Source: Pseudomonadota bacterium (lineage in GTDB: Bacteria; Pseudomonadota; Gammaproteobacteria; Pseudomonadales; UBA5862). From it: a stretch of 64,000 bases of DNA. Position 1 is the stretch's first letter, and each line of letters starts with the position of its first letter. The position numbers and the translations under genes were made by a program. The DNA lies in NCBI GenBank assembly GCA_034189125.1, contig JAXHVB010000018.1, positions 775 through 64,774 on the forward strand, in the 5' to 3' direction. This document shows, one piece after another, positions 11,695 through 56,382 of the stretch. Under the pieces are notes generated by a model. The model ran no database searches. It saw nothing but the letters and a program-made list of their open reading frames with translations, and was not told where the DNA came from.

Positions 11695-11700
11695 CGGATC

Positions 11701-12750: not shown

Positions 12751-12751
12751 G

Positions 12752-15867: not shown

Positions 15868-15876
15868 GAAGCCTGC

Positions 15877-18617: not shown

Positions 18618-18651
18618 ACCTGGCAAACCAAGCATTCATAAGGAGCCTGGT

Positions 18652-23196: not shown

Positions 23197-23224
23197 TGTC
23201 GGATCAACGGAGACACTAGCGGCA

Positions 23225-25123
23225 ATGTGCGGAATCGCTGGCATTTTTCAGATGGGGGTGGGCGATGCCGTGGATCCGAGCGTTCTCGAACGCATGAACC
23301 AGGCGCAGTTCCACCGTGGTCCGGATGAGGGTGGGTACCACTACGGTCCGGGGCTCGGCCTGGCGCATCGACGGCTTTCGATCATCGACCTTTCCGGAGG
23401 CCAGCAGCCCATGGCCGATCAAGAGGGTCGGGTTGTGGTGGTGTTCAACGGTGAAATTTACAATTTCGCTGAGTTGCGCACCGAGCTGATGGGCCTCGGC
23501 CACCACTTCCGCACCCGCAGTGATACCGAAGTGCTGGTTGAGGGGTGGAAGGCCTGGGGCGAAGCCTTGGTCCAGCGCTTGCGCGGAATGTTTGCCTTTG
23601 CCCTCTGGGACCGGACCGAAGAGACGGTGTTTCTGGCGCGGGACCGGCTGGGCATCAAGCCCCTCTACTATGGCCTCACGGACCGCGGCGCCCTGGTGTT
23701 CGGCTCGGAGCTCAAGGTGGTGCTGGCGCATCCGGGCATTCGCAGGGACCTAGACCCCCAGGCTGTTGAAGAGTATCTGGCGCTGGGGTATGTGCCCGAC
23801 CCGCGCTCGATTCTGAGTACCGTCAAAAAGCTACCCGCAGGCTATCGCCTGCTGTGCCGGAGAAACGATGCGCTGGGCGAGCCCAGGCAGTACTGGGACC
23901 TCCCCTTTGCTCCGGTCGACTCCGGCGATGAACGCCAGCTGTCGGAAGAACTGATTGAACGGTTGCGCGAAGCGGTGCGCATCCGACTGGTCGCCGAAGT
24001 GCCCTTGGGTGCGTTCTTGTCTGGCGGCGTCGATTCCAGTGCAGTGGTCGCGTTGATGGCGCAGCTTCAGTCCGACCCAGTGAACACCTGTTCCATCGGG
24101 TTCGATGTGCCGGAGTTCGACGAGAGCGTTTATGCGCAGCGGGTCGCTCAGCAGTACAATACAGAGCACCACCAGCGCACTGTCAATCCCGATGACTTCG
24201 ACCTGATCGACCAACTGGCCAGTTTGTACGACGAGCCGTTTGCAGACAGTTCTGCATTGCCGACCTATCGGGTGTGCCAGTTGGCTCGTGAACGGGTGAC
24301 AGTCGCGCTCTCTGGCGATGGAGGCGATGAGAATTTCGCTGGATACCGCCGCTACCGCTGGCACATGAATGAGGCCCGCATGCGCGGAGTGCTGCCGCGA
24401 CCGGTGCAGGGGCCAGTCTTTGGCGCACTGGGAAGCCTGTATCCAAAGTTGGACTGGGCACCGCGGTTTCTGCGCGCAAAGAGTACGTTTCAAGCCCTCG
24501 CCCGTGACCCTGTCGCCGGCTACTACAGAAACTTCTGCCTGTTGGTCGACGAGCAGCGTGAGGCCCTCTACAGCGACGCATTCAGGCGCGCGTTACAAGG
24601 GTACAACGCGGTGGAATTGTTTCGTTACCACGCGGCCCGCAGTCCCAGTGATGACCTGTTGTCTCAGGCGCAGTACATCGACTTCAAAACCTACCTGTCC
24701 GGAGACATCCTCACCAAGGTCGATCGCGCCAGCATGGCCCATGCGCTCGAAGTGCGGGTTCCCATCTTGGACCACCAGTTCGTGGAATGGGTCTCGGGGC
24801 TCGCGCCTGCGCTGAAGCTGCGTGGGCAAGAAGGCAAATACCTGTTGAAAAAAGCGCTGGAACCCCACCTGGGCGCAGACGTTCTGTACCGGGACAAAAT
24901 GGGCTTCGCAATCCCCGTCGCGCAATGGTTCAGAGGGCCACTTCGTGATCGTTTGCACAGTGCGCTGACTGGCGGCGTGCTGGCCGACACGGGGTATTTC
25001 AAGACCGAGGCACTGGTGAACCTGTTCGATCAGCATCAAAGCGGGCGCTCGGACCACAGCGCTGCGCTCTGGTCGCTGATGATGTTTGAGTCCTCGCTGC
25101 GCCACTTGCAGGGTGGCCTGTGA
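23225..25123 (+). CDS. asparagine synthase (glutamine-hydrolysing) family amidotransferase, exosortase-A-associated type
   Basis: ATG at 23225 gives MCGIAGIF, the Ntn Cys2 nucleophile. PP-loop AFLSGGVDSS and C-terminal KMGFAIP are present. The track ORF's upstream 41 aa overlap the previous gene. Confidence 0.9.
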   Translation: MCGIAGIFQMGVGDAVDPSVLERMNQAQFHRGPDEGGYHYGPGLGLAHRRLSIIDLSGGQQPMADQEGRVVVVFNGEIYNFAELRTELMGLGHHFRTRSDTEVLVEGWKAWGEALVQRLRGMFAFALWDRTEETVFLARDRLGIKPLYYGLTDRGALVFGSELKVVLAHPGIRRDLDPQAVEEYLALGYVPDPRSILSTVKKLPAGYRLLCRRNDALGEPRQYWDLPFAPVDSGDERQLSEELIERLREAVRIRLVAEVPLGAFLSGGVDSSAVVALMAQLQSDPVNTCSIGFDVPEFDESVYAQRVAQQYNTEHHQRTVNPDDFDLIDQLASLYDEPFADSSALPTYRVCQLARERVTVALSGDGGDENFAGYRRYRWHMNEARMRGVLPRPVQGPVFGALGSLYPKLDWAPRFLRAKSTFQALARDPVAGYYRNFCLLVDEQREALYSDAFRRALQGYNAVELFRYHAARSPSDDLLSQAQYIDFKTYLSGDILTKVDRASMAHALEVRVPILDHQFVEWVSGLAPALKLRGQEGKYLLKKALEPHLGADVLYRDKMGFAIPVAQWFRGPLRDRLHSALTGGVLADTGYFKTEALVNLFDQHQSGRSDHSAALWSLMMFESSLRHLQGGL

Positions 25124-29019: not shown

Positions 29020-29949
29020 ATGAGCGATTGGTGGGTCAAAGTCGACAAAACCCTGCGTCACCACGCCCAGGGTGGTGTGCAGGCGCTGCGCGCCCTGGCC
29101 TGGCCCCTGTTGCGCCAACCGGCCGCCCCGGTCTTTGTCGTCGGCTGCAGCCGGGCGGGCACGACCCTGGTGTACAAGACGCTGTCCGAATCCCCGGAGC
29201 TTGGCAGCCTGCAACGTGAAACCCACGACTACTGGGCTGGGTTGCACCCGCCGAGCGAGACAGGCTGGCAGACCCATGCGATCGCACCCGAGCAGGCCAA
29301 CCCCGACGAGGCCAACCGAGTCGCACGGGACTTTTTTGTGGGAACCGGCCGCCACCACTGGGTCGACAAGAACAACCAGAATGGCCTGTCGGTGCCTTAC
29401 CTCCTTGGTTTGTTCCCGCGCGCCCGTTTCGTGTACGTGAAGCGGGCGCCTGGCGACAACATCAACAGCCTCATTGAGGGTTGGAACAAACCCGAGGAGT
29501 TTGCCACCTGGTCGGACCGCCTGCCGGGGTCCGTGGCAATCGACGGCGGGCGCATTCAGCGCTGGTGCTTTTTCTTGGCCGCGGGCTGGGAGGCGCTGCG
29601 CGCCGCCCCCCTTGCCCAAGTGGCCGCGTTTCAGTACCGCGCAATGAATGACGCCATTCTGTCGGCCCGGGAGGCGGTTCCTGCAAGCCAGTGGGCCGAA
29701 GTCCACTATGAAGACCTGGTCACCGACCCAGTCGAAGAGTTCCGCCGCCTTTTCAGGGACTGCGCCCTGGAATTCGATGCGGCGACCGAGCACCACTGCC
29801 GCAGGGTTCTGGAACGGCCTTACAACGCATTTTCTCCCATTGGGCTCGAAAAGTGGCGCAGCGGACCGCATGCCCCTGCCATCGAGGCGGTGCTGCCGGA
29901 GGTGGGTGCAGTGGCCGGGCGCATGGGTTATCCGGCTGATGCCGCATGA
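29020..29949 (+). CDS. sulfotransferase (PAPS-dependent family)
   Basis: 5'-phosphosulfate-binding loop VVGCSRAGTTLVYK and 3'-phosphate-binding segment YVKRAPGDNINSL. Confidence 0.75.
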   Translation: MSDWWVKVDKTLRHHAQGGVQALRALAWPLLRQPAAPVFVVGCSRAGTTLVYKTLSESPELGSLQRETHDYWAGLHPPSETGWQTHAIAPEQANPDEANRVARDFFVGTGRHHWVDKNNQNGLSVPYLLGLFPRARFVYVKRAPGDNINSLIEGWNKPEEFATWSDRLPGSVAIDGGRIQRWCFFLAAGWEALRAAPLAQVAAFQYRAMNDAILSAREAVPASQWAEVHYEDLVTDPVEEFRRLFRDCALEFDAATEHHCRRVLERPYNAFSPIGLEKWRSGPHAPAIEAVLPEVGAVAGRMGYPADAA

Positions 29950-31115
29950 GTGCATGGATGGTTGCCGTGGGCGGGCTGGTGCTCTGGGGGCTGCTGCTGG
30001 TGGCTGGCCTGCTGCGCCACCGCCGTGTGCTGCTCAATTTGTGGCGCGAGCCGGTGCTTCGAGTCCCGGTGTTGGCGTTCGAGAGCGATGACTGGAGCCC
30101 GCAGCCGCAGTCGCAGGCCGGTGCGCTCAGGGCCCTGAGCGAGGTGCTCGCACGCCACCGCGACGTCGATGGCAATCCTGGCCTCATGACCTTGGGGCTG
30201 GTGTCGACTTCCCCGCAGCTGGAACCCACCGGGGCGGTCCAGTGGATTGACTGGTCCGATCCACAGGTCGCCTCCACCCGCAGCGCGGTCCTGGAGGGGG
30301 TGGAAGCGGGCATTTTTGCGCTGCAGCTGCATGGCGCAGCCCATTGCTGGGAGCCCGCCTTTGAGGCTTGGGCGGCCGGTCAAGCGAGCGCCGAAGGGCT
30401 GTCACCGCTCAACGAGGTGCTTCCCGATGCCCTGCAAAGCCGGTGGTGGGATCCGTATGCGGACCCACCGGCGCCGGTGGGCCCGCGGAGCGCCGAAGCC
30501 GCGGCCCATGCAGAGGCGCTTGGCTTTCAATCCCATTGGGGTGCGGTGCCCGCTGTTGCAGTCCCACCCACGTTTTTGTGGAGCCATGCGGTGGAGCAAG
30601 GCTGGCGCCGTGGCGGGGTTCGCTGGGTGGTGACGCCAGGTGCCCGCTTCGCCGGGCGGGATCGGTCTGGGCGAATGCAGCCTGCGGAGTCGGGCCTATG
30701 CAATGGCGTTCGCTCGGTCACTGGCCTGCGCTATCTGGTTCGCGATTCGTACTACGAACCCTGGAAAGGCCACGCGCCTGAGGTGGCGCTTGCAGCGCTG
30801 GCGCGACAAACCCGATTGGGGCGTCCCACCTTTTTGGAAATCCACCGCTGCAACTTCATTCCCGACCAGGGATGCGCTGACGACGCGCTGACCGGCACCG
30901 AAGCCGTGTTGCGCCTGGCGCTGGAGCAGCGTCCCAGCCTGCGCTTCATGTCGCCGCAGGAGCTGGGGGAGCGCTTGGAGCACCGGCGCAGCGATGACCT
31001 GTTCGAGCGGGGCCTCGTGCGGGTCCGCATGTGGCTGCGGCGCTGCGGGGTTGCCCCTGCGCTGTCGCGCTGGCTCAAAGCCACTGGACTTTGGCCGCTG
31101 GTGAAGCTGGCATGA
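29946..31115 (+). CDS. hypothetical membrane-anchored protein (possible deacetylase-like/DUF2334-like fold, weak)
   Basis: ATGA-coupled on both sides. An N-terminal TM (VAVGGLVLWGLLLVAGLL) is followed by VLAFESDDW and LQLHGAAHCWEP, which loosely resemble the metal-binding DD and HxxH segments of polysaccharide-deacetylase-like folds. No confident family. Confidence 0.55.
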   Translation: MSAWMVAVGGLVLWGLLLVAGLLRHRRVLLNLWREPVLRVPVLAFESDDWSPQPQSQAGALRALSEVLARHRDVDGNPGLMTLGLVSTSPQLEPTGAVQWIDWSDPQVASTRSAVLEGVEAGIFALQLHGAAHCWEPAFEAWAAGQASAEGLSPLNEVLPDALQSRWWDPYADPPAPVGPRSAEAAAHAEALGFQSHWGAVPAVAVPPTFLWSHAVEQGWRRGGVRWVVTPGARFAGRDRSGRMQPAESGLCNGVRSVTGLRYLVRDSYYEPWKGHAPEVALAALARQTRLGRPTFLEIHRCNFIPDQGCADDALTGTEAVLRLALEQRPSLRFMSPQELGERLEHRRSDDLFERGLVRVRMWLRRCGVAPALSRWLKATGLWPLVKLA

Positions 31116-33288: not shown

Positions 33289-33896
33289 TCGATCGGGTGG
33301 ACGCAGTGGCCAGGGCCCAGAGGGCGTGGCAGAAGGTGACACGCGGGCTCTGTGTGTTGCTGGCGATGGGTGCTTCGGGTGGGGCGCTGGGGGCCGAAGG
33401 CTTTGCCAAAACACCGCAGGAGGAAGCCATGTGCAACGCGGCGATTTATCGCGGGCGGGACACCAGCGACCGCAACAACTGGCAGCACATGCACCACTAC
33501 TGCGATTGTCTGCGCTTTGCCCGCCGCGCCATGACCCAACCCGCCGCCTCCTCGGCACGCAGCCACAACATCAGCCGTGCCCTGGATGGCTGCGACTATG
33601 TGCTGGACCACACCAGTTCAGGCTTCTACATGCAGCCGGCCGTACGGGCTTCACGGGCCTACGTGTTGATGCTGGACAAGCGCTACCGCGACGCGGTGGC
33701 GGAGTACGAGCGGGCACTGCGGCAGGATCCGAATTACCTCAAGGCCTACATGGGGTTGTTCGACGCCTGGTCTGCAGCCGGTGACCTGCAGTCGGCCCGC
33801 AAGGCCGCCGAGCGGGGGCTTGCCATTTCCCCCAACTCCAAGGCACTGCAGCGGCGTCTGCGCAAGGTCACCCAAGAAGGTGAGGCGGACGGCTAG
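33285..33896 (+). CDS. small secreted TPR-repeat protein
   Basis: ATG at 33285 (ATGA overlap, AGGAG 8 nt upstream). Signal-like LCVLLAMGASGGALGAEG. C-terminal TPR-like helices (YRDAVAEYERALRQDPNYLKAYMGLFDAW, GDLQSARKAAERGLAISPNS). Confidence 0.6.
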   Translation: MIDRVDAVARAQRAWQKVTRGLCVLLAMGASGGALGAEGFAKTPQEEAMCNAAIYRGRDTSDRNNWQHMHHYCDCLRFARRAMTQPAASSARSHNISRALDGCDYVLDHTSSGFYMQPAVRASRAYVLMLDKRYRDAVAEYERALRQDPNYLKAYMGLFDAWSAAGDLQSARKAAERGLAISPNSKALQRRLRKVTQEGEADG

Positions 33897-36800
33897 CGCG
33901 CCTTGGACGCTGCAGTCCGCTGGGATGCCTTGGCAGCGTCGCTGACTGCGGGGGTCATCACTGGGTCCTGCGCGAGCCACTGTTCCAGTTCGGCAATCAG
34001 GCCTGCGCCCACCTTGGGGTGTTGGTCGAGCACATCGAACTTGCAGCCGGGGTCGGTGCGCAGATCAAATAGCAGGTACATTGGGCCGGCCTCAAGCGGC
34101 TGGTAGACCAGTTTCCATCCGTCCCGACACAGCATCCGGTCCTTGGCCCGCACGATGTCGGCTTGGTGTTCGGCCTTGATGCTGAGGGTTCCGGTTTCCT
34201 TGTCAGACACCTCCAGCAGATCGAGCAACTGTGGGTAGCGCAGGTGTCCCGGCGGAGTGCCCGGGAGGTCGGTCAGCCAGATGCCGGTCTCATTGATCGC
34301 CGGGCGAACCTCCGTGAAGCTGTGGCTGTTCCACCACGGCAGGACCGATGCGCCATCCACCGACTGCGGCACCGGCAGTTCGAGCAGTTCCAGCAAGGTG
34401 GGCATCAAGTCGATGCTCCGCACCAGATCGGTGACTCGCCCCCGGCCGGCGCGGCGCGGATCGGCAATCACCAGGGGCACCCGCGGACTGGCATCGCCCC
34501 TGGCTGAATTCCCCTGTCCCCAGGTGTCGTGTTCAAAGAACTCCATGCCGTGGTCGCTGTAGATGACCACAATGGTGTTGTCGGCCATGCCGCGGGCCGA
34601 GAGGTCGTCCAGTACCTTGCCCACTTCGTCGTCGAATTCCGCGACGCAGCTGTCGTACAGGTTCAGTACTTGGTCCAGATCAAACTCCTCGCGGGCCTCT
34701 CCCTGGCGCTCGATGATGTCAAATGGGTCGGTGAGCCGTGCCATGGCGAAGCGCGATTCACCTGCATAGTCGGGGGAGGTAAACCGTGTGTAGTAGGGGT
34801 GGCGGGCGCCGAACGGCGGATGGGTGGTGGAGAAAAACGTGTTGAGGAAAAACGGTTTGTTGGACTTTCCCAGCGCGTTCAGCGCCGCCCGAGTCCGCTG
34901 ACCAAGCAGGTCCGTGGTGGGGATGCCGCCCAGAAAGTGCAGCTCGGGTAGCAGCTGGCGGCCCGCGCAACCCTGGGAAAACAGCGAGAGAAACAGCCGC
35001 AGGTCCCGAGGTCCCTGGCGAATGAGGTACTTTAGGTTCCACTGGTCATCCGGCAAATCCAGCTGCTCGAAACCAAAGCTGAACTTGCCGAAATCGGCCC
35101 CGCACCAGTCGGAGACGACCGCAGTCTGGTAGCCTGCGTCCCTCAGAATCGTGGCCAAATCGGCGGACTTGATTTGCACCTCGGCGTCCGAGACAAAGTT
35201 GTCGCGCACACCGTGGTGGTGCGGCCAGGTGCCGGTAAAGAGTGACAGCAGACTCGGCGCTGTGCGGGCACAGGGCACGTAGCAGTTGGTGAAGCCGATC
35301 CCGCCGGCGATCAACGCATCGATTCTTGGGGTGAGCGAGGCGCCATTGCGCTGGGCACCGATGCGGTCGGCGCGCAGCGTGTCGGATCCCAGCATCAGGA
35401 GGTTTGGAGGTGACTTGTGCGCACGGCCTCTGCGGGGTCCTAGCCGGGGTCCGCGGGTGTCAGGCAACAGCCAATCCAGGCCACCGGCAAGCACCAGCAT
35501 CGCGCCTGCTAGCGTTGCCATGGCCGGCCAGTTGCCAGCGGCGGCGGCGTCAGCGAGCGCGAGCACCATGGGCGCACAGGCGCCGGCCACAAGGGCGCTG
35601 CCGAACACAGACAGCCGCCCCGGCGTCAGTTGCTTCCACAGGGGGTAGAGCCGACTCCAGCGGTAGCTGATTGAAGCCACCAGGGCCGCCGGCTGGTGCA
35701 GCAACATCGAACAGAACCGCCAGGAACAGGTGCCTGCGATGGCCGCAAGCGGAGCGAGCCAGGGGCCCCAAGCCAAGGATTCTGCGGTGGGAAACACCTG
35801 GACGAGCGCCCACCAGGAGACGGCGCCGATGCTGGCAAGGAACGCGATCAGCAGCCAACTCCAGGCTGCCAGGCGCGCCACGGCAAAGACCGTGTAGCGG
35901 CGATAGTGATTGAGGATTTCCTCGCGAATTTGGGGGCCCGTCTGGCTGAAGTGCAGGACCGACTTCACTGTCAGGGCCGCGGTGAACAAGGTTGCAAGCC
36001 CTGCGGCTGGACCAAGCGTTGGGGCCAGGGTGTTCGCATCCTGGTTGGTGAACCAACCGATGGCATACAGGAGGGCACCCGACGCGGCGAGCCCAGCAGG
36101 GCGCCGTGGCCGTGGCCAAAACTGCCTGCGGCGGTGGCTGCGGTTGTGGTCCTGCCGGGCAGCGACCACGCCTGCACACTCCCCCAGCGTGGCCGCCAAC
36201 CGCATCGCATAGAAGTGGCGCTTGTGTGGATTGAAAGTGAACAGCGCGCGCGCCAAGTGGGCGATGAGCAGGCGCCAGACGTACAGCGGAATTTTTCGCC
36301 GCTGGGTGTGAATGCGCATGCTCGCTTTCGAGCGGTGGTAGCTTTTTTTCAGTAGGTAGCTGCGCTTGAGCCGGTCGTGTTCGACGTGGTGACGCTGGCG
36401 CATGCCGGCCAGGTAGTACAGCCGTTCGCCGTGGTGCAGCGCCCGCGCTAGGAATTCGCTGTCTTCCCCGCCTCCGAGGTCGTGACCTCGGGGTCCAAGC
36501 TCCAGGGAATAGCCGCCGATCTCTGCAAAGATGCGGGTCTGGAGCACGAGGTTACCGCCACTCGGACGCGCGTCGCCTTCGCGCAGCCGGTGGTCCTGGT
36601 CTCCGAGATCAAACTGTGGCACCGGCAGTGGATAGATGCGGTACTTGCCTTGCTCGTGCACCCAATCGGGCTCGGTGCCATCCCAGTCAGGCAGCAGGCG
36701 GCCACAGAACATGCTCGCCGTCGGGTGTTGGTCGATGCCGGTGGCGATGGCTGTGAAAAAATTTGGGTCGACGCGCTGGTCATCGTCCACGATGGTGGCC

Positions 36801-37069
36801 CAGCGGGTTTGCAGCGCACCAATGGCGCGGTTGAGTGCCGCCGACTTTCCGGGCGTGGGTTCGGCGATCCACTCCAGCGGGACGTGTTCTTGCGATGGGT
36901 CGTGTTTGAAGCCATCGAGCAGAGCGTGGGTGTCATCCGTGCAGGCGTTGGCGATGACGAGAAGCCGGACCCCAGGCACCTGTTTGGCCTGGTTGAGTGC
37001 CCCGAGGGCGCGCCGCAGCAGGGCGGAGCGATTGTGGGTACAGATGACAACGGTCAGTGGCAACTCCAT
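33893..37069 (-). CDS. tripartite fusion: N-terminal GT2 glycosyltransferase / ~7-TM membrane domain / C-terminal sulfatase-like (alkaline-phosphatase superfamily) domain
   Basis: aa 1-260: LTVVICTHNRSALL, ANACTDDT, IVDDDQ and GEDSEF (GT2). aa ~265-535: hydrophobic helices. aa ~555-1058: NLLMLGSDTLRADRIG, TPRIDAL and NCYVPCARTAPSLLSLFTG (codons 35252-35272), YSDHG and WGQG. The sulfatase CxPxR position reads T-A-P-S-L. Confidence 0.8.
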   Translation of the reverse strand: MELPLTVVICTHNRSALLRRALGALNQAKQVPGVRLLVIANACTDDTHALLDGFKHDPSQEHVPLEWIAEPTPGKSAALNRAIGALQTRWATIVDDDQRVDPNFFTAIATGIDQHPTASMFCGRLLPDWDGTEPDWVHEQGKYRIYPLPVPQFDLGDQDHRLREGDARPSGGNLVLQTRIFAEIGGYSLELGPRGHDLGGGEDSEFLARALHHGERLYYLAGMRQRHHVEHDRLKRSYLLKKSYHRSKASMRIHTQRRKIPLYVWRLLIAHLARALFTFNPHKRHFYAMRLAATLGECAGVVAARQDHNRSHRRRQFWPRPRRPAGLAASGALLYAIGWFTNQDANTLAPTLGPAAGLATLFTAALTVKSVLHFSQTGPQIREEILNHYRRYTVFAVARLAAWSWLLIAFLASIGAVSWWALVQVFPTAESLAWGPWLAPLAAIAGTCSWRFCSMLLHQPAALVASISYRWSRLYPLWKQLTPGRLSVFGSALVAGACAPMVLALADAAAAGNWPAMATLAGAMLVLAGGLDWLLPDTRGPRLGPRRGRAHKSPPNLLMLGSDTLRADRIGAQRNGASLTPRIDALIAGGIGFTNCYVPCARTAPSLLSLFTGTWPHHHGVRDNFVSDAEVQIKSADLATILRDAGYQTAVVSDWCGADFGKFSFGFEQLDLPDDQWNLKYLIRQGPRDLRLFLSLFSQGCAGRQLLPELHFLGGIPTTDLLGQRTRAALNALGKSNKPFFLNTFFSTTHPPFGARHPYYTRFTSPDYAGESRFAMARLTDPFDIIERQGEAREEFDLDQVLNLYDSCVAEFDDEVGKVLDDLSARGMADNTIVVIYSDHGMEFFEHDTWGQGNSARGDASPRVPLVIADPRRAGRGRVTDLVRSIDLMPTLLELLELPVPQSVDGASVLPWWNSHSFTEVRPAINETGIWLTDLPGTPPGHLRYPQLLDLLEVSDKETGTLSIKAEHQADIVRAKDRMLCRDGWKLVYQPLEAGPMYLLFDLRTDPGCKFDVLDQHPKVGAGLIAELEQWLAQDPVMTPAVSDAAKASQRTAASKAR

Positions 37070-38013: not shown

Positions 38014-39009
38014 TCAGCCGGTGCTCCAGCGCTGCAGGTGCACGCATGCGTGGTTGTGCAGGCGGTAGTAGGCCCGCTTCAGTGGGGGCAGGCGGACCGT
38101 CGAGGTAACGATCGGGTAACCGAATTGCTTCAGGGTCTTCCCGACCGAACCTTCCAGGGTGCGCAGCTGCGATGGGGTCCATTGTTGGCGCCACTTTTCG
38201 GTGTTGCTGGCCTGCACGGGCTGCTGGAGCAGCGGTGTTTTGCCTGCCTCGCCGGACTTTTCAAAATGGATGACGCGGGGGTCGTACTCCATCTGCAGGT
38301 AACCACAGACCTGGCGAACCGTACCTTCAGGGTCGGTCAGGAGGTCTTCGTAGCGGATCTCCAGGTACTGGTTGCCGGCCATGTTTTGGCCCAACTCGTT
38401 GCCGATTTCGACGTACTGTTCCCATACTTTGGCGGCAAAATAGGGGTTGTACACGCCAAAATCGGTACCGCGCGCGAGCATGGAAGCGGCCACGTCGCGC
38501 CCGTCACGCACCAGGTGGATGAACTGGGCTTTGGGAAACCAGTCGAGGAGTTTCGGCATGTGCAGCACGTAGTATGGGGTCTTGTCTCCCCAGCGGTGTT
38601 TGCCCTCTCCGGCGGCATTCTTCTCGAACAGACCGGCAATCAGGTCACGCACAGTCCTCCGGCCTTCCGCCCAAAGTTCAGGGGCCAGGCGGTCAATGTC
38701 GAACTCGATGCCATGCAGGTCCGTGTCCAAGAATTGCGGGTTTCGTCTGTGCAGGTCTTGCAGAAAGGCCCGGATGCCGGTCTCGGTTTCGAGTGCTTTG
38801 AAACGGGTCTGGTCACGGTACAGTGGAACCAGGAAGTGGGACTCGCCGGTTGGCAGCGACAACTCCGGATGGGACCGCAGCATGTATTGCAGCAGGGTGG
38901 TTCCTGACCGGGGCGCCCCCACGATGAAAACCGGGGTCTCGCTTGACCTGGCCTGGGGATGGCCACCCACGGACTGGGCTCGGCTTGTCACCTGGGCGTC
39001 AGTGTGCAT
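38014..39009 (-). CDS. sulfotransferase (PAPS-dependent family)
   Basis: 5'-PSB loop FIVGAPRSGTTLLQYML and 3'-PB segment HLVRDGRDVAASML. ATG at 39009 gives an 11-nt overlap with the upstream GT2; ATG at 39063 is also possible. Confidence 0.8.
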   Translation of the reverse strand: MHTDAQVTSRAQSVGGHPQARSSETPVFIVGAPRSGTTLLQYMLRSHPELSLPTGESHFLVPLYRDQTRFKALETETGIRAFLQDLHRRNPQFLDTDLHGIEFDIDRLAPELWAEGRRTVRDLIAGLFEKNAAGEGKHRWGDKTPYYVLHMPKLLDWFPKAQFIHLVRDGRDVAASMLARGTDFGVYNPYFAAKVWEQYVEIGNELGQNMAGNQYLEIRYEDLLTDPEGTVRQVCGYLQMEYDPRVIHFEKSGEAGKTPLLQQPVQASNTEKWRQQWTPSQLRTLEGSVGKTLKQFGYPIVTSTVRLPPLKRAYYRLHNHACVHLQRWSTG

Positions 39010-40000
39010 GGGGGTCGGCCGGACCCGTGCTGACCGCCTGGACGGTGCCCACCGGCGGCTCAATGGGCTGGTGCCGGTCTTGCCAGAGGCCGTGCAAGGT
39101 CCCGAAAAAGTGCCACAGGATCATCTCCTGGGCAAATGCTTCCGGCGCCGGCTTGGTGAATCGCGCGGTCAGCGCACGCGCGCCGGCACGCAGGGTCTGT
39201 ACAACCAAGTAGGGAGGGATACCGCCGATCCGGCGTCTTGCCGGAACTCCGAGGGTGCGCGCCAGGTTGTGACTGGTTTGTCGCCGCCAGCGTCGGAAAT
39301 AGGACTTGCGGGTCCTGAAGGCTTCGATGCGGTGGTGCACGCGGGATTCCGGAACGTACACGAGCTTGGCGCCCGCAGCCAAGAATCGGGTGAACAGCTC
39401 GCTGTCTTCGCCGCTGGCCAGCTGATTTCCCCTGCGACCGCGGTGCACATCGAAGTCTCCGTGCTGGTCGATCAAGCGCCGTCGAATCGCCATGTTGGCA
39501 CCGAACGGCAGTTGCCCTGGGTGTTCGATCAGGTAGGGACGGGTGTCGACCTTGACCGCGAGAAAGCCGAAAAACCGTTCGGTGAGCCAAGCAGGGGGCG
39601 GGGTTTCCCAGTCAGGTGCAATGTACCCACCGCAGCCGTCGGCTTGCTCTCGCTCCAGGGCTGTCACTGTGGTTTGAATCCAGTTCGGCTCCGGACGCAC
39701 GTCGTCGTCGGTGAACAGCAACAGCTTGCCAGCGGCGGCGCGAATCCCGGCGTTGCGTGCGTGCGACAGACCCTGCTGAGGCTCGAAGACGTACCTGAGC
39801 TGTGGGACATTTTGCCCGCCGCGCTCGACCACGGTGCGGGTGTGGTCGGTGGAGTTGTTGTCCACCACCACCAACTCCCAGGGCCAGTCGGGTGGAACCA
39901 CTTGTGCGCCGAGCGCAGTCAAGGTGTGGCGCAACGAATCTGCACGGTTGTAGGTGCAGACGATGACGGATACCGCCGGGCGTTCGCCAGGGCCGGTCAT
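38999..40000 (-). CDS. GT2 glycosyltransferase
   Basis: VSVIVCTYNRADSLRHTLTAL, VVDNNSTD, LFTDDDV and GEDSELF. ATGA overlap with the upstream gene. Confidence 0.85.
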   Translation of the reverse strand: MTGPGERPAVSVIVCTYNRADSLRHTLTALGAQVVPPDWPWELVVVDNNSTDHTRTVVERGGQNVPQLRYVFEPQQGLSHARNAGIRAAAGKLLLFTDDDVRPEPNWIQTTVTALEREQADGCGGYIAPDWETPPPAWLTERFFGFLAVKVDTRPYLIEHPGQLPFGANMAIRRRLIDQHGDFDVHRGRRGNQLASGEDSELFTRFLAAGAKLVYVPESRVHHRIEAFRTRKSYFRRWRRQTSHNLARTLGVPARRRIGGIPPYLVVQTLRAGARALTARFTKPAPEAFAQEMILWHFFGTLHGLWQDRHQPIEPPVGTVQAVSTGPADPHAH

Positions 40001-41847: not shown

Positions 41848-43026
41848 TCATTCGCCCTTCGATGGGGCCAGCAAGGCCGCGTAAATCTGCAGGCACCGCT
41901 GCGCCACCGCGTCCCAGGGAAACCTCCGTGCGTGGGCGCGGCAACGTGCGGGGTCGAAGTGCAGTTCGGCGCTCAGAAACTGGCGCAGTGCGCCGGTGAT
42001 GCTGGGTTCATCCGGTGTGTCGACGAAATACCCACTGACGCCCTCGTCGACCGCCTCAACCGCACCCGCAAGGCGTGCGGCGAGCACCGGAACCCCACAG
42101 GCATTGGCCTCCAGGTAGACAATACCGAATCCCTCGTGGCTGCCGGGCACCACGGAGGAACAGAGGATGAACAGGTCACTGGATCGCAACTCGCGGTGCA
42201 GTGCGGCGTCGCTGAGTCGGCCCAGAAATTCCACCTGTCTCGTTAGGCCAAGCTGCGCGGTCAGCTGTTCGAGCGCGCTCCTTTGGTAGCCGTCTCCGAT
42301 GATGCGGTACTGAAACGCTTGTGTGTCCTTCAATCGGGCAAGCGCGCGCAGCACAACGTCGAGGTTTTTGCGGGGTTCGGACAGGCGACTTACAGTGACC
42401 AGTTGCGCAGGCTGGCTGGTCTCGCGGGGGCGTGCGATTGGGTCGAGAAAAAAGCGCTCGGCCACACCGACATGGGCCACATGCAGGCGTTCGGCACATT
42501 CGGGATGGCGCTCCACCAAGGCGTTGGCGGTGTAGTGGCTGTTGGCGACCAGCGCCTGCAGGCCGCCGAGTTCATGGCGCAGCAGGCGTGGCGCGATCCA
42601 CCTGCGCCCCAGCTCACGGCGCAGTGGCTGCAGGCGGTCCGACAACCGCCACAGCCCCGGCACTTGCACGGGCATTGCCGCCCGCAGCCCATAGGGGCGC
42701 AAGAAATCGTTGCCGTGTACCGATGCCACCACCGGGCGCGTGCTGCTGTGGGCGAGGGCGCCGTACACGGCATTCATGGCGTGCCACAGGTCAACAGGCT
42801 GGCGCTGGATGATGTCCAGGTCGTGGCGCCAATCGAGGTTGAGCAGCGGGTGCACCCGCGCTCCAGGCACCTCGGCGCCAGCATGGGTGCGGCAAAAGAT
42901 GTCGAGTTCAATGTCATGCCCTGCAAGGGCCCGGCACAGTTCGAACGCATAGGTTTCCACGCCGCCGAGGTCGGGGGGGAACTCGGGTGCCAGCACCCCG
43001 AGGTGGAGCGGCTTGGTCACTGCCAA
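41848..43026 (-). CDS. GT4 glycosyltransferase
   Basis: LGVLAPEFPPDLGGVETYAFEL at the N-terminus and EGFGIVYLEANACGVPVLAARLAGAVEAV at the C-terminus. TTG at 43026 or GTG at 43020 as start. Confidence 0.85.
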   Translation of the reverse strand: MAVTKPLHLGVLAPEFPPDLGGVETYAFELCRALAGHDIELDIFCRTHAGAEVPGARVHPLLNLDWRHDLDIIQRQPVDLWHAMNAVYGALAHSSTRPVVASVHGNDFLRPYGLRAAMPVQVPGLWRLSDRLQPLRRELGRRWIAPRLLRHELGGLQALVANSHYTANALVERHPECAERLHVAHVGVAERFFLDPIARPRETSQPAQLVTVSRLSEPRKNLDVVLRALARLKDTQAFQYRIIGDGYQRSALEQLTAQLGLTRQVEFLGRLSDAALHRELRSSDLFILCSSVVPGSHEGFGIVYLEANACGVPVLAARLAGAVEAVDEGVSGYFVDTPDEPSITGALRQFLSAELHFDPARCRAHARRFPWDAVAQRCLQIYAALLAPSKGE

Positions 43027-44930
43027 GTCTCCAGGCGGCGCAGCGCAATCCAGCCGTTCCCATTGTGCGCCGTTGAGGCGTCAAGGTGGCTGGTGTAGCC
43101 CGGCACCTGGGGTGTGGCGTTTTCGGAGCTCGCGGCCGGCTCGAGGGCCACCAGCACCAGTTCTTCCCCGGTCCCAACGGGAACCACAAGCCAATCGGCT
43201 GGGCCAGCAATGGCAGCAGCGGATCGGTGGCGTCCGCCACCGGCTTCGGCATTGCCACCAAGAACGGAGGGCGGCAGACCGATTCCGGATTGGTGAAGCA
43301 TGCGCAGGGCATCGGCCAATGCTGAGCGCAGTGCTGGGTCGGGGTCCTGGCCACACAGGTGAAACAGGGTTTCCGCCCAGAACACCAGCGCGTAGGCTTT
43401 TTTGGGCTGCTCGCGCCAGTGTTCCAGCAGCCCGCTCGTTTGGGTGAATGCGATGCCTTGTTCTAGGGCTTCATCAACGCCTGGGCAATGGCTCCACGGG
43501 CGCAGGCGAGCGAGGTCCATCAGGTTGATGGACTGATAGGCGTCAGCAGTCCCCTGGATGGACAGCGCACGGTCAATGTATCCGTTGGGCATGACCAGGC
43601 GTGGCCAACGCGACTTGAGGCGGTGCAGCCTCGGGGCCAGGTACTTCCAGCCGAATCGTTTGATGGCGCGCATGGGGAGCGGCAGCGCGGCGGCAGTGTG
43701 CTCAGGCTGCATGTCCAGCCCCAGTATCCAGCTCACCAGGCGGTACAAAGGTTCCATGGGGCGGGCTTGCAGCACCGCTTGCAAGGCGCGTTCGGCGGAT
43801 GCGATCACAGCCGCGTGGGCCGAGTCTCCAGTGATTGCCTGATGGCGCAGCAGGGCAATGAGGGTGTCGATCTGGGTGTTCAGCACCAGCATGTTGCCAG
43901 GCTGCTTGCCGAGCGCGGTGCTGGAGGTCCACTTGAATGGACTCTTGGCCATGGCCTCTGCGCTTTGCTCAAGGCTGTCATGCAGGAACCAGACTCCCGC
44001 GTCAATGGTGCTGCGCTCGCCGACGATGAAGGCAACCGCACGCTGCAGTGCTGGCAACAGTGTGTTGTCCTGCTCCAGGGTCCAGTGGTCGAGAAGGCAA
44101 TGGATGGCGCTGCAGTGCAGGCGGTAGTGGCACTCCAGTTCGTCGGTCCAGAATCCGTGGTACCAACCGCCGTCAGGGCTTTGCCGATCAAGGATGGAGA
44201 GCACCATCTGGTGGCGTAGAAGCGCCGCGCAGGGGCTGTCGGCGAGTTCCCAACCGCGGGCGATTACATAGAGCGCATGGGCATCGTTCTCCGAGCAAAT
44301 GCGTCGGTAGTTCGGCCAGGAGCGCCGGTTTTCGTAGACGTGCCCATGCACCCAGTGCAGGTAGAAGTCCTGCGGGCTCTGTACCCGCTGGTGCGAGCCC
44401 CAGGGGTGCAGCGCCAGAGCAGCGGCTTCTCTGATGGCCAGCCAGGACTGCAGGTCCTCAATGCCATCCAGCACCCAGTAGACCAGGTCCAGGCAGTGCG
44501 ATCCCGGCAAGTGGAACCGAAGGCGGTGGGCGTCGTCATGGGTATGCCAACCGGACAGGGTGGCGTTGGATTCGATCTCGATCTGGCCCTTGTCGTCGAT
44601 GCGCCGCTGTTGGGGAACGCAGGGAATCCAAAGCGGGGCAGCGTGGCCTCGTTGATCCACCAGCAGCCAGCTTCCGTCGGCTTGCTGGGTCGCGGCCATT
44701 GCCTCTGGAAGACAGACATCTACGGATGCGTCATGGCTGGTGGTTGAGATGCGCAGTGACCAGACAGTTGCCGCAGTTCCACTGAAGCGATCGCACAGCC
44801 AGCTCAACTCAAGGCCGTCTTGCTGTTCGGACCAGCGGTGGCGCTGCGCTGCAGCGGTTTCGGTGGTTGGCTCCCCAGCGGTTGGCGGCAGCTGTGTTGG
44901 AGGTCGAATGTGGATGGTTGCTTCGGCCAT
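43017..44930 (-). CDS. hypothetical 637-aa protein with alpha/alpha-toroid-like C-terminal part (orphan enzyme)
   Basis: Start taken at ATG 44930 (Met137 of the track ORF; upstream sequence overlaps the preceding GT2). Contains a QW-like segment LDRQSPDGGWYHGFW and a helix-rich region NMLVLNTQIDTLIALLRH. No signal peptide or TM seen. Confidence 0.6.
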   Translation of the reverse strand: MAEATIHIRPPTQLPPTAGEPTTETAAAQRHRWSEQQDGLELSWLCDRFSGTAATVWSLRISTTSHDASVDVCLPEAMAATQQADGSWLLVDQRGHAAPLWIPCVPQQRRIDDKGQIEIESNATLSGWHTHDDAHRLRFHLPGSHCLDLVYWVLDGIEDLQSWLAIREAAALALHPWGSHQRVQSPQDFYLHWVHGHVYENRRSWPNYRRICSENDAHALYVIARGWELADSPCAALLRHQMVLSILDRQSPDGGWYHGFWTDELECHYRLHCSAIHCLLDHWTLEQDNTLLPALQRAVAFIVGERSTIDAGVWFLHDSLEQSAEAMAKSPFKWTSSTALGKQPGNMLVLNTQIDTLIALLRHQAITGDSAHAAVIASAERALQAVLQARPMEPLYRLVSWILGLDMQPEHTAAALPLPMRAIKRFGWKYLAPRLHRLKSRWPRLVMPNGYIDRALSIQGTADAYQSINLMDLARLRPWSHCPGVDEALEQGIAFTQTSGLLEHWREQPKKAYALVFWAETLFHLCGQDPDPALRSALADALRMLHQSGIGLPPSVLGGNAEAGGGRHRSAAAIAGPADWLVVPVGTGEELVLVALEPAASSENATPQVPGYTSHLDASTAHNGNGWIALRRLETWQ

Positions 44931-44938
44931 TCTCGGGG

Positions 44939-45946
44939 TCAGCGCATGCGAATGGATGGGGGGCAATCGCCGAAGCGGCGGAACAGGTAGTCGCGGGTCG
45001 CCTGGCGCAAGGCGCGTTGGCGTGGCGACTTCCACAGCAGGATGGCGTCCTTCAGTGCCCAGTAAACGCGGCGCACCGGACCGGTGCCCGGGGAGCTTGT
45101 CCAGGCGACCTTTGGCACCAGGCGGCGCAGGGCGGCGAACACCAGTGTGAGCCATTCGCGCCTGGGCAGATGTCGTTCGGCGAACAGCAGTTGGTTGCGG
45201 GCGCTGAAATAGGCGCGCAGAGGGGAGTCTTCGCCCCCGAAAGTGGCGGCTACTTTGTGTCGCACGAATGCGGCAGTGCACACCCGGCTGTTGTAACCTG
45301 CCCGGCGCGCACGCAGGCACCAGTCGGACTCCTCCCACACCAGAAAAAATCGCTCTTCAAACAAGCCAATCTCGCGCAGTGCGTCGGCGCGCAGCAGAAT
45401 CGCCGCCCCTGTGACCCAATCACAGTCGATCCAAGGTGTGGATGGGAGCGCACTGCGAGGGGCACCTTCCAGGTGGTGGACGCAGTTGAGCAGCCCCGGG
45501 CCGAAGCGTTCACCGGCCGTGCTGATGAGGTCCGGTTCGTGCGCTGAGCAGATCACAGGGCCAATGGCTGCAGTTTTTGGATCCTGTGCTGCAGTTTCCA
45601 GCAAAGCATTGAACAGACCGGGCTCCGCTTCCGTGTCGTTGTTGAGCACAAACACGTACTCTGCGCCGGTGTCTAGAGCGCGCTTGATGCCGACGTTGTT
45701 GCCGCCGGCATAGCCGAGATTGCGCCTGGTCTCGATCACTTCAACCTGCGGATAGCGGGCTCGAATCTCGGCCACCGAGTCATCTGTTGACCCGTTGTCA
45801 ACCACCAGGACGGAGGGCTGCTCAGGACAGGCTGCAGTGAGGGAGTTGAGGCACCGCAGTGTGTCTGCGCACCCATTCCAGTTCAGCACCACAGTCACCA
45901 CAGTCGGGTCGGGTGGCGCAGTAGACTCAGGGTTGGGATGGGTCAT
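44939..45946 (-). CDS. GT2 glycosyltransferase (rhamnosyltransferase-like)
   Basis: ATG at 45946 (ATGA overlap with the upstream gene). Motifs VVTVVLNWNGCADTLRCLNSL, VVDNGSTDDS and VFVLNNDT. Confidence 0.8.
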   Translation of the reverse strand: MTHPNPESTAPPDPTVVTVVLNWNGCADTLRCLNSLTAACPEQPSVLVVDNGSTDDSVAEIRARYPQVEVIETRRNLGYAGGNNVGIKRALDTGAEYVFVLNNDTEAEPGLFNALLETAAQDPKTAAIGPVICSAHEPDLISTAGERFGPGLLNCVHHLEGAPRSALPSTPWIDCDWVTGAAILLRADALREIGLFEERFFLVWEESDWCLRARRAGYNSRVCTAAFVRHKVAATFGGEDSPLRAYFSARNQLLFAERHLPRREWLTLVFAALRRLVPKVAWTSSPGTGPVRRVYWALKDAILLWKSPRQRALRQATRDYLFRRFGDCPPSIRMR

Positions 45947-47157
45947 GGCAGCAGGCGCCCGAGGCGTTCGCGCAGGCGCCAATACAGCGCCTTGAACGGG
46001 CTCGCACCGGTGTGTGGGTCTGAGAGGTCCGTGCGTTGCGGGTGCTTGAGCGCGTGGGCGGTTGCCTCAAGGTACGCGCGCCCCCAGCGTTGGTCGGGCT
46101 CAAGGTAGGCACCCTCGGCCCATTCGTTCCAGGCGTTGATGAACAGCAGGCGTTCGTCGCCCCGGAATTCATCCAGTGTGCGGGCGGCCATGTGTTGCAG
46201 CCAGCGCTGATATTCAGATGGCGTAGAGTTGACCAGGATTCGCGCATTGCGCTTGCGCCGGGCGCTGTTGTCCCAGGCCGGGGTTACGCAGTGGAACCGC
46301 TTGAACGCAGGGGCTGGTCGCTGCATTTTGCCAGCGGCGACCGCTGGGTACGCGAACACGTCGTTTTCCATTGGTGCGGCTGAGATCAACCGCAGTCGGG
46401 CGAGCAACCGATGCAGGCGACTGCGGTAGAGCTTGGCACCCATCTCGCGCCCATCGGGTGCAAACTCGAGTGCTGCGTCGAACCCCACGGATGTGGGATC
46501 CACGTCACGTTCGAAATTTTCCACCCGCACCAGGTACAAACCGGGCAGGCCCGCGGCCTGGGCGGCCTCGCGCCAGATCCGCGCGGTCGACGCTGGATCC
46601 GGAAGCAGTTCCGTGCGGTAGACCAGCAGCAGGGGCTTGCCATCGACTCGAATGTAGCGGGGATCCTGAAGCGCGGGGAGCAAGGCAGCGATGTGTGCAC
46701 GGTCGTCAGCCTCGCTGTAGTGTTGCTCCAGCAACACGTCACGGTCCCCTCCGCTCCAAGTGCGGGTCCAGTTCTCGTTGGCCCAGCACAGGCAAAAGGG
46801 AAAGTCAGGCTCACCGCTTTCCAGGACTTCGTTGAAAGGTCGCTCCAAAATTCGCCGACCATTGAACCAATAGTGGTAGTAGCAGAACCCGTGGATGCCG
46901 TACTCGCGGGCAAGTGCTGCCTGGGCGGCGCGGGTTTCTGGCAGGCGCAGGTCGTAGAACCCGAGGTCTGCGGGCAGCCGAGGCTGGTCGTGGTTGCGAA
47001 ACCTCGGCAAAGAACGGGTGACATTGGTCCATTCCGTAAATCCCTGTCCCCACCAGCGGTTGTTTTCCGCCACCGGATGAAACTGCGGCAACAGCAAGGC
47101 CAGGGCCCGAATCTCGTTGCGAGCGTTTGGTTTCGATTGCGTGGGGGGATGAGTCAA
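45943..47157 (-). CDS. WbsX-like / GH99-like domain protein (lipopolysaccharide biosynthesis protein family)
   Basis: LPQFHPVAENNRWWGQGFTEWTNV, HGFCYYHYWF and CWANENWTRTW are hallmark motifs of the Glyco_tran_WbsX family. TTG start at 47157. Confidence 0.8.
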   Translation of the reverse strand: MTHPPTQSKPNARNEIRALALLLPQFHPVAENNRWWGQGFTEWTNVTRSLPRFRNHDQPRLPADLGFYDLRLPETRAAQAALAREYGIHGFCYYHYWFNGRRILERPFNEVLESGEPDFPFCLCWANENWTRTWSGGDRDVLLEQHYSEADDRAHIAALLPALQDPRYIRVDGKPLLLVYRTELLPDPASTARIWREAAQAAGLPGLYLVRVENFERDVDPTSVGFDAALEFAPDGREMGAKLYRSRLHRLLARLRLISAAPMENDVFAYPAVAAGKMQRPAPAFKRFHCVTPAWDNSARRKRNARILVNSTPSEYQRWLQHMAARTLDEFRGDERLLFINAWNEWAEGAYLEPDQRWGRAYLEATAHALKHPQRTDLSDPHTGASPFKALYWRLRERLGRLLP

Positions 47158-48116: not shown

Positions 48117-48130
48117 GACAGTCCGATGGA

Positions 48131-56344: not shown

Positions 56345-56350
56345 TATAGT
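56345..56350 (+). promoter_or_regulatory. candidate -10 hexamer (TATAGT) inside the AT-rich divergent promoter region 56138-56382
   Basis: TATAGT at 56345-56350 lies 33 nt upstream of the ATG at 56383. No convincing -35 at 17-bp spacing. A perfect TATAAT also reads on the minus strand at 56365-56370. Confidence 0.25.
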
Positions 56351-56382
56351 TGCATGGCTTTTCAATTATATCTGCAGAGTGT

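Follow-up and report, generated by a model that had tools for sequence, protein, structure and literature searches.

A single gene in a 64,000-nucleotide stretch of a Pseudomonadota genome (contig JAXHVB010000018.1, assembly GCA_034189125.1; hereafter, the window) encodes a GT2 glycosyltransferase, six predicted transmembrane (TM) helices and a sulfatase-like domain of the alkaline phosphatase superfamily in one polypeptide of 1058 amino acids (aa). The sulfatase-like domain has a threonine at the position of the sulfatase nucleophile, and the residues that hold sulfate in sulfatases are lost. We favor, with a probability of about 0.5, the reading that the protein is bifunctional and serves exopolysaccharide assembly in the inner membrane; both of its catalytic domains would lie at the cytoplasmic face, and its sulfatase-like domain would perform phosphoryl-type chemistry. 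The family to which the gene belongs is uncharacterised but abundant, is mislabelled as arylsulfatase in databases, and is akin to the membrane-anchored members of the alkaline phosphatase superfamily that modify glycopolymers.

The fusion is genuine and widespread

The gene is an unbroken, ATG-started open reading frame (ORF; Table 1) with a third-position GC content of 0.78, in line with the real genes of a window of 58–68% GC. Pfam assigned its N-terminal part to Glycos_transf_2 (PF00535, aa 6-140, E 3.7e-13, 50.2 bits with a cut-off of 23.3) and Glyco_tranf_2_3 (PF13641, aa 5-227, E 8.8e-12, 46 bits with a cut-off of 27), and its C-terminal part to Sulfatase (PF00884, aa 555-896, E 6.9e-41, 140.9 bits with a gathering cut-off of 25), with a further match to the NPP/PhnA-type family Phosphodiest (PF01663, aa 557-630, E 2.7e-13, 50.7 bits with a cut-off of 23). 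An earlier note on this DNA, made from the letters alone, had proposed the three-part architecture, and it proved both real and conserved. More than 120 full-length homologue clusters with the same Pfam architecture (1002-1086 aa, 49-53% identity over at least 93% of the query) were recovered from a search of 5.8 billion proteins; they stem from Thiobacillus, Sulfuricella, Sulfuriferula and Hydrogenophilales. A species-level scan (one genome each) returned 292 relatives, including those of Thiobacillus thioparus DSM 505, Candidatus Nitrotoga, Thauera (loci L066 and L070), Aromatoleum and Azoarcus. The family is a conserved part of XrtA/PEP-CTERM exopolysaccharide loci in Thiobacillus, Nitrotoga, Sulfuricella, Thauera, Aromatoleum and their relatives.

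Both motifs highlighted by the earlier note in the GT2 part, IVDDDQ (D95-D97) and GEDSEF (E202-D203), were found in the protein. The DDD triplet and E202-D203 are invariant in a 79-sequence alignment (A2), and in a second alignment of 84 sequences (A3), D95, E202 and D203 do not vary, with D96 and D97 conserved at >90%. Foldseek matched the GT2 part to the structures of WrtF, TarS, TarP, SpsA and K4CP (E 4e-9 to 8e-8), and a profile match, the DxD motif and a GT-A fold were thus all found. The top NCBIfam match was HpsE (88.8 bits, under its cut-off of 300), and a PDB sequence search with the GT2 part gave no match.

Split versions of the gene exist in other genomes, which might suggest that the fusion is a frameshift or misassembly product of two genes, one for GT2 and one for a separate membrane sulfatase-like protein. 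We regard such an artefact as effectively ruled out: the two parts lie in a single reading frame in 80 of the 80 loci fetched from independent species-representative genomes as well as in the homologue clusters above, and TM1 of the fusion is an additional helix with no counterpart in the split versions. In one split locus (L083, positions 9102-12115), a GT2 gene of 299 aa runs into the start of a stand-alone gene (704 aa) for five TM helices and the sulfatase-like domain, and a Sulfotransfer_3 gene lies just upstream. In two others (L081, 3356-7713; L082, 2933-7290), a GT2 gene of 367 aa likewise overlaps the beginning of a gene for a 1085-aa protein composed of the five-TM module, the sulfatase-like domain and a GT4 domain. 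These overlaps show that the GT2 and the membrane module are a functional pair.

Two other arrangements were seen among the relatives: three proteins of about 1450-1500 aa (P0187, P0214 and P0250) have two sulfatase-like domains per chain, and one of 1187 aa (P0193) has an N-terminal Peptidase_M50 region ahead of the TM and sulfatase-like module.

A threonine occupies the nucleophile position

HMMER alignments to solved S1 sulfatases placed Thr603 exactly on the formylglycine column and Leu607 at the position of the signature Arg, as the earlier note had claimed. The segment T-A-P-S-L-L-S-L-F-T-G pairs residue by residue with S-S-P-S-R-A-A-M-F-T-G of the PsS1_NC C84S variant (6pt6), and also with S-T-P-A-R-A-G-L-L-T-G of 7oz8, which has Ser at the nucleophile column; T-A-P-S-L likewise pairs with A-S-P-S-R of the PsS1_NC C84A mutant (6ptk). 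Among S1 sulfatases, the nucleophile position is Cys in 78.9% and Ser in 21.1% of the sequences in SulfAtlas, and the signature Arg55 is 99% conserved. With Thr603 in place of Cys or Ser and Leu607 in place of Arg, formylglycine cannot form and the domain is not a formylglycine sulfatase, a point on which the earlier note was right. Thr is not unusual in PF00884 proteins, as about half of the Pfam seed sequences have it (PMC5066984).

None of the four sulfate-holding residues of S1 sulfatases is left. The Arg55 column is Leu or Trp family-wide; the S1 motif GKWH (G-K-x-W-H) reads SDWC in the fusion, with D654 for Lys113 and C656 for His115, the latter column being Cys or Ala in the family; and the Lys375 column, Gln852 in the query, is His in 77 and Gln in 41 of the representative relatives. 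The metal and acid residues are retained, namely D563 (the first metal-ligand Asp, which had been given as D562), D839-H840 in NTIVVIYSDHG (YSDHG being aa 837-841) and H750 in PFFL...TTHPPF. All of the S1 positions Asp13, Asp14, Asp317, Asn318 and His211 therefore have a counterpart, though T564 stands for Asp14, which is itself only 76% conserved among S1 sulfatases; D563, D839 and H840, at the remaining three metal-ligand positions, do not vary.

Across the 79 sequences, P599-C600-A601-R602-T603, P605-S606-L607, D563, T564, R566, D568, H750 and Y837 to H847 are invariant. In a wider set of 150 representatives at 50% identity, reaching down to about 30% identity with the query, the nucleophile was Thr in 130 of the 134 aligned domains, and D563, R566, D568, R602, H619, D654, H750, D839, H840, E846, D887, E927, K976 and R978 were also conserved. 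Conservation of the catalytic residues over such a distance is the pattern of a working active site, and because Thr603, D563, D839 and H840 are invariant, a Thr-nucleophile catalyst of the alkaline phosphatase superfamily would be the sensible reading of the domain. An invariant loop, EFFEHDTWGQG (aa 845-854, positions 34508-34537), adjoins the DHG metal ligands and may be a mobile active-site lid.

The domain is most similar to sulfatases and phosphonate monoester hydrolases

The sulfatase-like domain reached none of the curated NCBIfam cut-offs for S1 sulfatases or for LtaS/EptA-type enzymes. The best scores were those of arylsulfatase (126 bits, cut-off 481), PehA (117 bits, cut-off 900) and choline sulfatase (99 bits, cut-off 433), compared with 30.7 bits for YejM (cut-off 825), 26.1 for LtaS (cut-off 970) and 12.3 for CptA (cut-off 404), and the latter three matches were confined to residues about 780-897, i.e., the DHG region. 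The top 50 Foldseek matches of the AlphaFold2 (AF2) model in the PDB were all S1 sulfatases, phosphonate monoester hydrolases (PMH) or choline sulfatases (TM-score on target 0.55-0.69, about 20% identity); enzymes of the LtaS, YejM, CptA and EptA type were absent from these 50. By sequence and model, the domain is thus a sulfatase/PMH-branch fold with an acquired Thr nucleophile and an NPP-like local motif. The LtaS/EptA/OpgB type to which it had been assigned does not fit these matches. Of the earlier proposal of a Thr-nucleophile catalyst, the Thr and the metal site were borne out, and the branch and the side of the membrane were not.

Both catalytic domains are predicted to face the cytoplasm

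Family-averaged hydropathy and two AF2 runs indicated six TM helices. One run, based on the 79-sequence alignment, had a mean predicted local distance difference test score (pLDDT) of 81.9 and a predicted template modelling score of 0.70, and the other had a mean pLDDT of 88.5. A count of about seven, given in the earlier note, was rejected since the helices at 262-277 and 281-316 are amphipathic and charged (2.2 and 4.2 Lys plus Arg, respectively). An even number had been named beforehand as speaking against a domain outside the cytoplasm.

The charge distribution agrees with this count. Averaged over the 79 sequences, the segments on the GT2 side contain about 14.5 Lys plus Arg in sum (3.4 before TM1, 3.5 between TM2 and TM3, 3.7 between TM4 and TM5, and 3.9 after TM6, with a further 2.4 at the end of TM4) versus 2.3 on the other side (0.8 between TM1 and TM2, 0.1 between TM3 and TM4, and 1.4 between TM5 and TM6). 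The three loops predicted to be outside are only 6-9 residues each, and the long conserved loops FSQTGPxIREE (374-384) and HYRxSRLYxLW (468-478) are on the predicted inside.

Relatives with other domain arrangements point the same way. An exhaustive search of the representatives revealed many stand-alone proteins of ~700 aa that align from TM2 on and thus consist of TM2-TM6 and the domain. They have five hydrophobic peaks, acidic N-terminal tails without Lys or Arg, and 10-18 Lys/Arg on the C-terminal side versus 0-2 on the opposite side, a pattern that predicts the N-terminus out and the C-terminus in. Joining a cytoplasmic GT2 to such a protein needs exactly one extra helix, and TM1, which the fusions have, would be that helix. 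In a 1085-aa protein (P0123), the five-TM module and the sulfatase-like domain are directly followed by GT4, and no hydrophobic segment lies at the junction (19-residue hydropathy maximum 1.1); two further proteins of 1085 aa (P0271 and P0272), 79-84% identical and from different sources, have the same C-terminal fusion. A GT4 using nucleotide sugars must be cytoplasmic, so the sulfatase-like domain preceding it without an intervening TM helix would be on the cytoplasmic side as well.

Taken together, these predictions make it probable that the sulfatase-like domain of the fusion is cytoplasmic and lies beside the GT2. The earlier note had placed it outside the cytoplasm, with a glycan made inside and decorated outside; the predicted topology instead puts both activities at the cytoplasmic face.

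Proposed function and alternative readings

In the reading that we favor, the GT-A/GT2 domain (DxD 95-97, E202-D203) would add a nucleotide-sugar-derived sugar onto an undecaprenyl-linked glycan intermediate, and the six TM helices with their conserved cytoplasmic loops would tether the protein and bring the chain back to the cytoplasm. There, the alkoxide of Thr603, activated by metal bound to D563, D839 and H840 with R602 and H750 nearby, would form a covalent phosphoryl-type intermediate. Before this same lipid-linked glycan intermediate is exported, the domain would transfer or hydrolyse a phospho-ester or phosphodiester substituent on it. Candidate substrates include a phospholipid head-group donor, a phosphorylated sugar, undecaprenyl pyrophosphate, and 3'-phosphoadenosine 5'-phosphate (PAP) or 3'-phosphoadenosine 5'-phosphosulfate (PAPS). 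Phosphoryl rather than sulfuryl chemistry is suggested because, to our knowledge, all characterised Thr-nucleophile members of the superfamily (NPP, PhnA, LtaS, EptA/MCR-1) perform phosphoryl transfer on phosphate esters, and because a sulfo-Thr intermediate would be without the elimination route of formylglycine.

Several observations weigh against this reading. The topology, strong as the prediction is, is a predicted one. In relatives at 30-36% identity, the same catalytic residues come with another five-TM module, which predicts a periplasmic domain: this sister clade (P0183, P0185, P0194, P0200, P0217, P0232 and P0236) shares the Thr, Asp and His residues, and its module, with a Lys/Arg-rich N-terminal tail and a YPQLYAEAFY loop and without the FSQTGP motif, is predicted to run from the N-terminus inside through five TM helices to the C-terminus outside, so the catalytic domain is not intrinsically cytoplasmic. 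The loop at 845-854 is the sole internal stretch of the catalytic domain with a pLDDT <50 in AF2. In sequence and in fold the domain is closest to sulfatases, and 21 of the 29 fully flanked loci have a sulfotransferase gene within 10 kb. A TagF-like C-terminal fusion (P0126) may be a gene-calling artefact; it was down-weighted as a witness of topology because it is a singleton, with no other protein joining both parts, and a TagF-like gene was found in one of 83 loci.

If the domain were periplasmic, as in LtaS, EptA, OpgB and BcsG, it could move a head group from an outer-leaflet phospholipid onto the exported glycan, with the GT2 inside. The combination of a Thr nucleophile and a multi-TM anchor is indeed the LtaS/EptA layout, the sister clade shows that the same catalytic residues can follow an odd number of helices in a predicted outside domain, and TM1 of the query is only weakly hydrophobic (19-residue maximum 0.93), leaving five TMs if it is discounted. 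However, TM1 is clearly hydrophobic family-wide (1.69) and helical in both AF2 models, and the charge bias, the Lys/Arg-free acidic tails of the stand-alone relatives and the GT4 fusions in three sequence clusters all argue for the opposite side. The similarity to LtaS, YejM and CptA is weak, LtaS/EptA have Glu as the strand-1 metal ligand where the fusion has the Asp of sulfatases and NPP, and the motif is TAPSL and not TxNxE. The fusion is thus probably not an extracytoplasmic LtaS/EptA-type enzyme, and a periplasmic domain in general appears unlikely; the outside picture may fit the sister clade and not the fusion gene.

Slightly harder to sustain is a sulfate-directed role, in which the domain would remove, shift or otherwise edit the sulfate esters that the neighbouring PAPS-dependent sulfotransferases make, or would bind and handle PAPS or PAP at the membrane. 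S1 sulfatases are its closest relatives in both sequence and structure, a sulfotransferase lies two genes upstream in the operon with only one 307-aa ORF between and a second one is nearby, and sulfotransferase homologues were found in 59 of 83 related loci, as well as beside the split version. Yet the Thr precludes formylglycine, the four sulfate-holding residues are replaced (Arg55 by Leu/Trp, Lys113 by Asp, His115 by Cys/Ala, Lys375 by Gln/His), and we know of no Thr- or Ser-nucleophile member of the superfamily that is a physiological sulfatase. Moreover, eight of the 29 fully flanked loci lack any sulfotransferase homologue within 10 kb; the linkage is frequent and not universal, and was not accepted as proof of a sulfate-related function. 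We consider improbable a catalytically silent scaffold or sensor, like PbgA/YejM, that holds a lipid-linked intermediate or organises the fused or adjacent GT2 and GT4. This would suit a core of five TM helices and a domain that meets different partner transferases at either end, the poorly modelled loop at 845-854, and the alternation of Gln and His at the second-site residue; the retention of Thr and D563, D839 and H840 in relatives as distant as about 30% identity is the pattern of a working site rather than of a relic.

A more specific form of the favored, cytoplasm-facing phosphoryl-type reading is conceivable, though we hold it as doubtful. The family may be an undescribed enzyme class, a cytoplasm-facing mirror image of LtaS/EptA derived from the sulfatase/PMH branch, that modifies undecaprenyl-linked exopolysaccharide intermediates at the inner leaflet. 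As parts of this same tentative proposal, it would install or trim a phospho-substituent (for example, a head group from an inner-leaflet phospholipid, or a terminal mark read by the carbohydrate-binding domain of Wzt), the GT2 would be an obligatory partner, either fused or translationally coupled, and the sister clade with its unrelated TM module would do the same periplasmically. An active Thr-nucleophile transferase or hydrolase facing the cytoplasm would represent an unrecognised modification step in bacterial exopolysaccharide assembly. Databases name the family 'arylsulfatase' or 'sulfatase-like hydrolase/transferase' and cluster maps call it 'sulfatase', and its sequence excludes a formylglycine sulfatase.

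Genomic context

Judged by its marker genes, the window is a canonical XrtA/PEP-CTERM exopolysaccharide locus. Matches above the cut-offs were obtained for TIGR03109, TIGR03007, TIGR03018, TIGR03016, TIGR03015, TIGR03006, TIGR03019, TIGR03087, TIGR03097 and TIGR03108, with roles including chain-length determinant, tyrosine kinase, outer-membrane protein, ATPase, deacetylase, FemAB, stp1 and exosortase A with EpsI, besides the O-ligase-like TIGR03097 and the amidotransferase TIGR03108. The minus-strand run that the fusion gene closes starts with Wzm and Wzt and continues with genes for a methyltransferase, WbsX, GT4, GT2, a polysaccharide deacetylase, GT2, a sulfotransferase and the 307-aa ORF. 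Wzm and Wzt thus lie inside a locus of the XrtA (Wzy/tyrosine-kinase) type, which places an ABC-transporter-dependent glycan pathway and an exosortase-type pathway side by side. In pathways of the Wzm/Wzt type, the glycan is completed in the cytoplasm.

The 307-aa ORF had no Pfam or NCBIfam match and may be an unrecognised glycosyltransferase because of its DxD-like motif; in 12 related loci, a homologue immediately precedes the fusion. On the other side of the fusion, GT4 (65 of 80 related loci), GT2 (61 of 80) and the second sulfotransferase (52 of 80) are conserved. The true start of the 773-aa ORF is probably further downstream, given its overlap with a GT2 ORF.

Table 1 Features of the fusion gene and its surroundings, in nucleotide positions of the window.
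Feature	Position	Strand	Basis or remark
Whole fusion ORF: GT2, six TM helices, Thr-type sulfatase-like domain	33893..37069	-	ORF call, Pfam, homologues, locus scan
GT-A fold GT2 domain (aa 5-254)	36308..37057	-	Pfam, invariant columns, AF2, Foldseek
GT2 DxD motif D95-D97	36779-36787	-	Conserved columns
GT2 E202-D203	36461-36466	-	Conserved columns
Two charged amphipathic (interfacial) helices, aa 262-277 and 281-316, then Arg-rich stretch; predicted non-TM	36122..36286	-	Hydropathy, Lys plus Arg, AF2
Six predicted TM helices, aa 323-341, 345-374, 390-425, 435-458, 483-511, 514-534	35468..36103	-	Hydropathy, Lys plus Arg, AF2, alignment
Arg/Lys-rich linker after TM6, LPDTRGPRLGPRRGRAHKSPP	35405..35467	-	Positive-inside signal for the side that carries the sulfatase-like domain
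Sulfatase-fold domain of the alkaline phosphatase superfamily (aa 556-1037)	33959..35404	-	PF00884, PDB phmmer, Foldseek
D563, first metal-ligand Asp	35381..35383	-	Alignment; equivalent to Asp13 of P. aeruginosa AtsA
Nucleophile motif PCARTAPSLLSLFTG (aa 599-613)	35231..35275	-	HMMER alignments, alignment columns
R602-T603	35261-35266	-	Thr603 = ACA, 35263-35261
L607, in place of sulfatase Arg	35249-35251	-	HMMER alignments
D654, on the column of sulfate-binding Lys113 of S1 sulfatases	35108..35110	-	Alignment; kept in 130/133 family members
H750 (motif TTHPPF)	34820..34822	-	Alignment; equivalent to active-site His211 of S1 sulfatases
D839-H840 of NTIVVIYSDHG, second metal-ligand pair	34550..34555	-	Alignment; equivalent to Asp317, Asn318
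Q852, on the column of sulfate-binding Lys375	34514..34516	-	Alignment
ORF of 307 aa	37077..38000	-	HIDSDML (DxD-like) motif; ends 7 nucleotides before the fusion ATG
Sulfotransferase, same operon	38014..39063	-	Sulfotransfer_3, E 1.2e-37; immediately precedes the fusion in many related loci
Second sulfotransferase	29020..29949	+	Sulfotransfer_3; homologue about 1-9 kb past the fusion stop in most related loci
ORF of 389 aa, no family match	29946-31115	+	Adjoins sulfotransferase in 54/80 related loci
ORF of 773 aa, no family match	43017-45338	-	Overlaps GT2 ORF (44939-45982) by about 400 nucleotides
WbsX	45943-47157	-	Adjoins Wzm/Wzt
FkbM methyltransferase	47154-48302	-	Adjoins Wzm/Wzt
Wzt (ABC_tran and Wzt_C)	49472-50728	-	Pfam; upstream end of the run
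Wzm (ABC2_membrane)	50743-51561	-	Pfam; upstream end of the run
Formyl_trans_N protein and protein with squalene-hopene-cyclase C-terminal-like domain	52723-54709	-	Upstream end of the polysaccharide operon
Complete XrtA/PEP-CTERM core	7642-20081	+	TIGR03007, TIGR03018 Tyr kinase, TIGR03016, TIGR03015, WecB, TIGR03006, TIGR03019, TIGR03087, RmlA, RmlC
Exosortase A fused to EpsI domain	17085-18617	+	Part of the XrtA core
Asparagine-synthase-type amidotransferase of the XrtA system	23102-25123	+	NCBIfam TIGR03108
Second asparagine-synthase-type amidotransferase	56350-58215	+	Pfam Asn_synthase match only

Comparison with known systems

In agreement with the earlier note, the literature search found no characterised example of a GT2/TM/sulfatase-like fusion or of a cytoplasmic Thr-type sulfatase-like enzyme, and returned only cluster maps showing a 'sulfatase (wbbL)'. 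One such gene, Tmz1t_3253 of Thauera aminoaromatica MZ1T, is drawn in a map of a floc/biofilm exopolysaccharide cluster (PMC4784049 Fig. 5), and another, RGS1_10427 of Rubrivivax gelatinosus, is tabulated in an exopolysaccharide cluster (PMC3684757). The MZ1T cluster (Tmz1t_3247-3253) has the order Asn synthase, GT2, deacetylase, GT2, hypothetical, GT2 and, last, 'sulfatase' (PMC4784049), and the Rubrivivax table shows the same order (PMC3684757), which corresponds to 33.9-41.7 kb of the window. By annotation and gene order, the two genes are apparent orthologues of the fusion. Both clusters have been tied to floc and biofilm formation (PMC4784049, PMC3684757). Neither study addresses the 'sulfatase' gene: the Thauera phenotype maps to the deacetylase (PMC4784049), and RGS1_10427 is not among the transposon hits (PMC3684757). 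MZ1T is genetically tractable, and its exopolysaccharide was reported to have unidentified esterified non-sugar substituents (PMC4784049).

The GT2 part shares the DxD and ED motifs and the GT-A fold with glycan-decorating enzymes (the HpsE/EpsD families; WrtF, TarS, TarP, SpsA and K4CP). Unlike HpsE/EpsD-type GT2 proteins, it scores under every curated cut-off and is followed by two interfacial helices and the six-TM module.

For the sulfatase-like part, S1 sulfatases and phosphonate monoester hydrolases (6pt6, 7oz8, 4uph, 2vqr, 2w8s, 6g5z and 1hdh) are the best sequence matches (E 4e-26 to 1e-22), and the PF00884 fold with its C-terminal subdomain, the strand-1 Asp, NTxxVxxSDHG and the active-site His of PFFL...H are common to both. 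The fusion differs from S1 sulfatases in its Thr, in the Leu, Asp, Cys and Gln that replace Arg55, Lys113, His115 and Lys375, and in its six-TM anchor and GT2. With the Thr phosphodiesterases of the NPP/PhnA type it shares the Thr nucleophile and the motif T-x-P-...-L-x-T-G-x-x-P-x-x-H-G, but only the N-terminal 70 residues of the domain match and the remainder is sulfatase-like; there is no evident counterpart of the second Zn site of NPP, and Gln852 stands where the wider family has His.

LtaS, EptA/MCR-1, OpgB, BcsG and GacH likewise join a multi-TM anchor to a PF00884-type domain and act in the biogenesis of cell-envelope glycopolymers. The invariant T603, D563, D839 and H840 of the fusion presumably correspond to the single D/E-T-D-H metal site of LtaS/EptA, with its Thr nucleophile (Ser in BcsG). 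In LtaS/EptA-type enzymes, the catalytic domain is extracytoplasmic after an odd number of TM helices, whereas that of the fusion is predicted to be cytoplasmic after six. If this holds true, membrane-anchored glycopolymer modifiers of the alkaline phosphatase superfamily would have had a second, independent origin, in the sulfatase branch and with an orientation opposite to that of LtaS/EptA.

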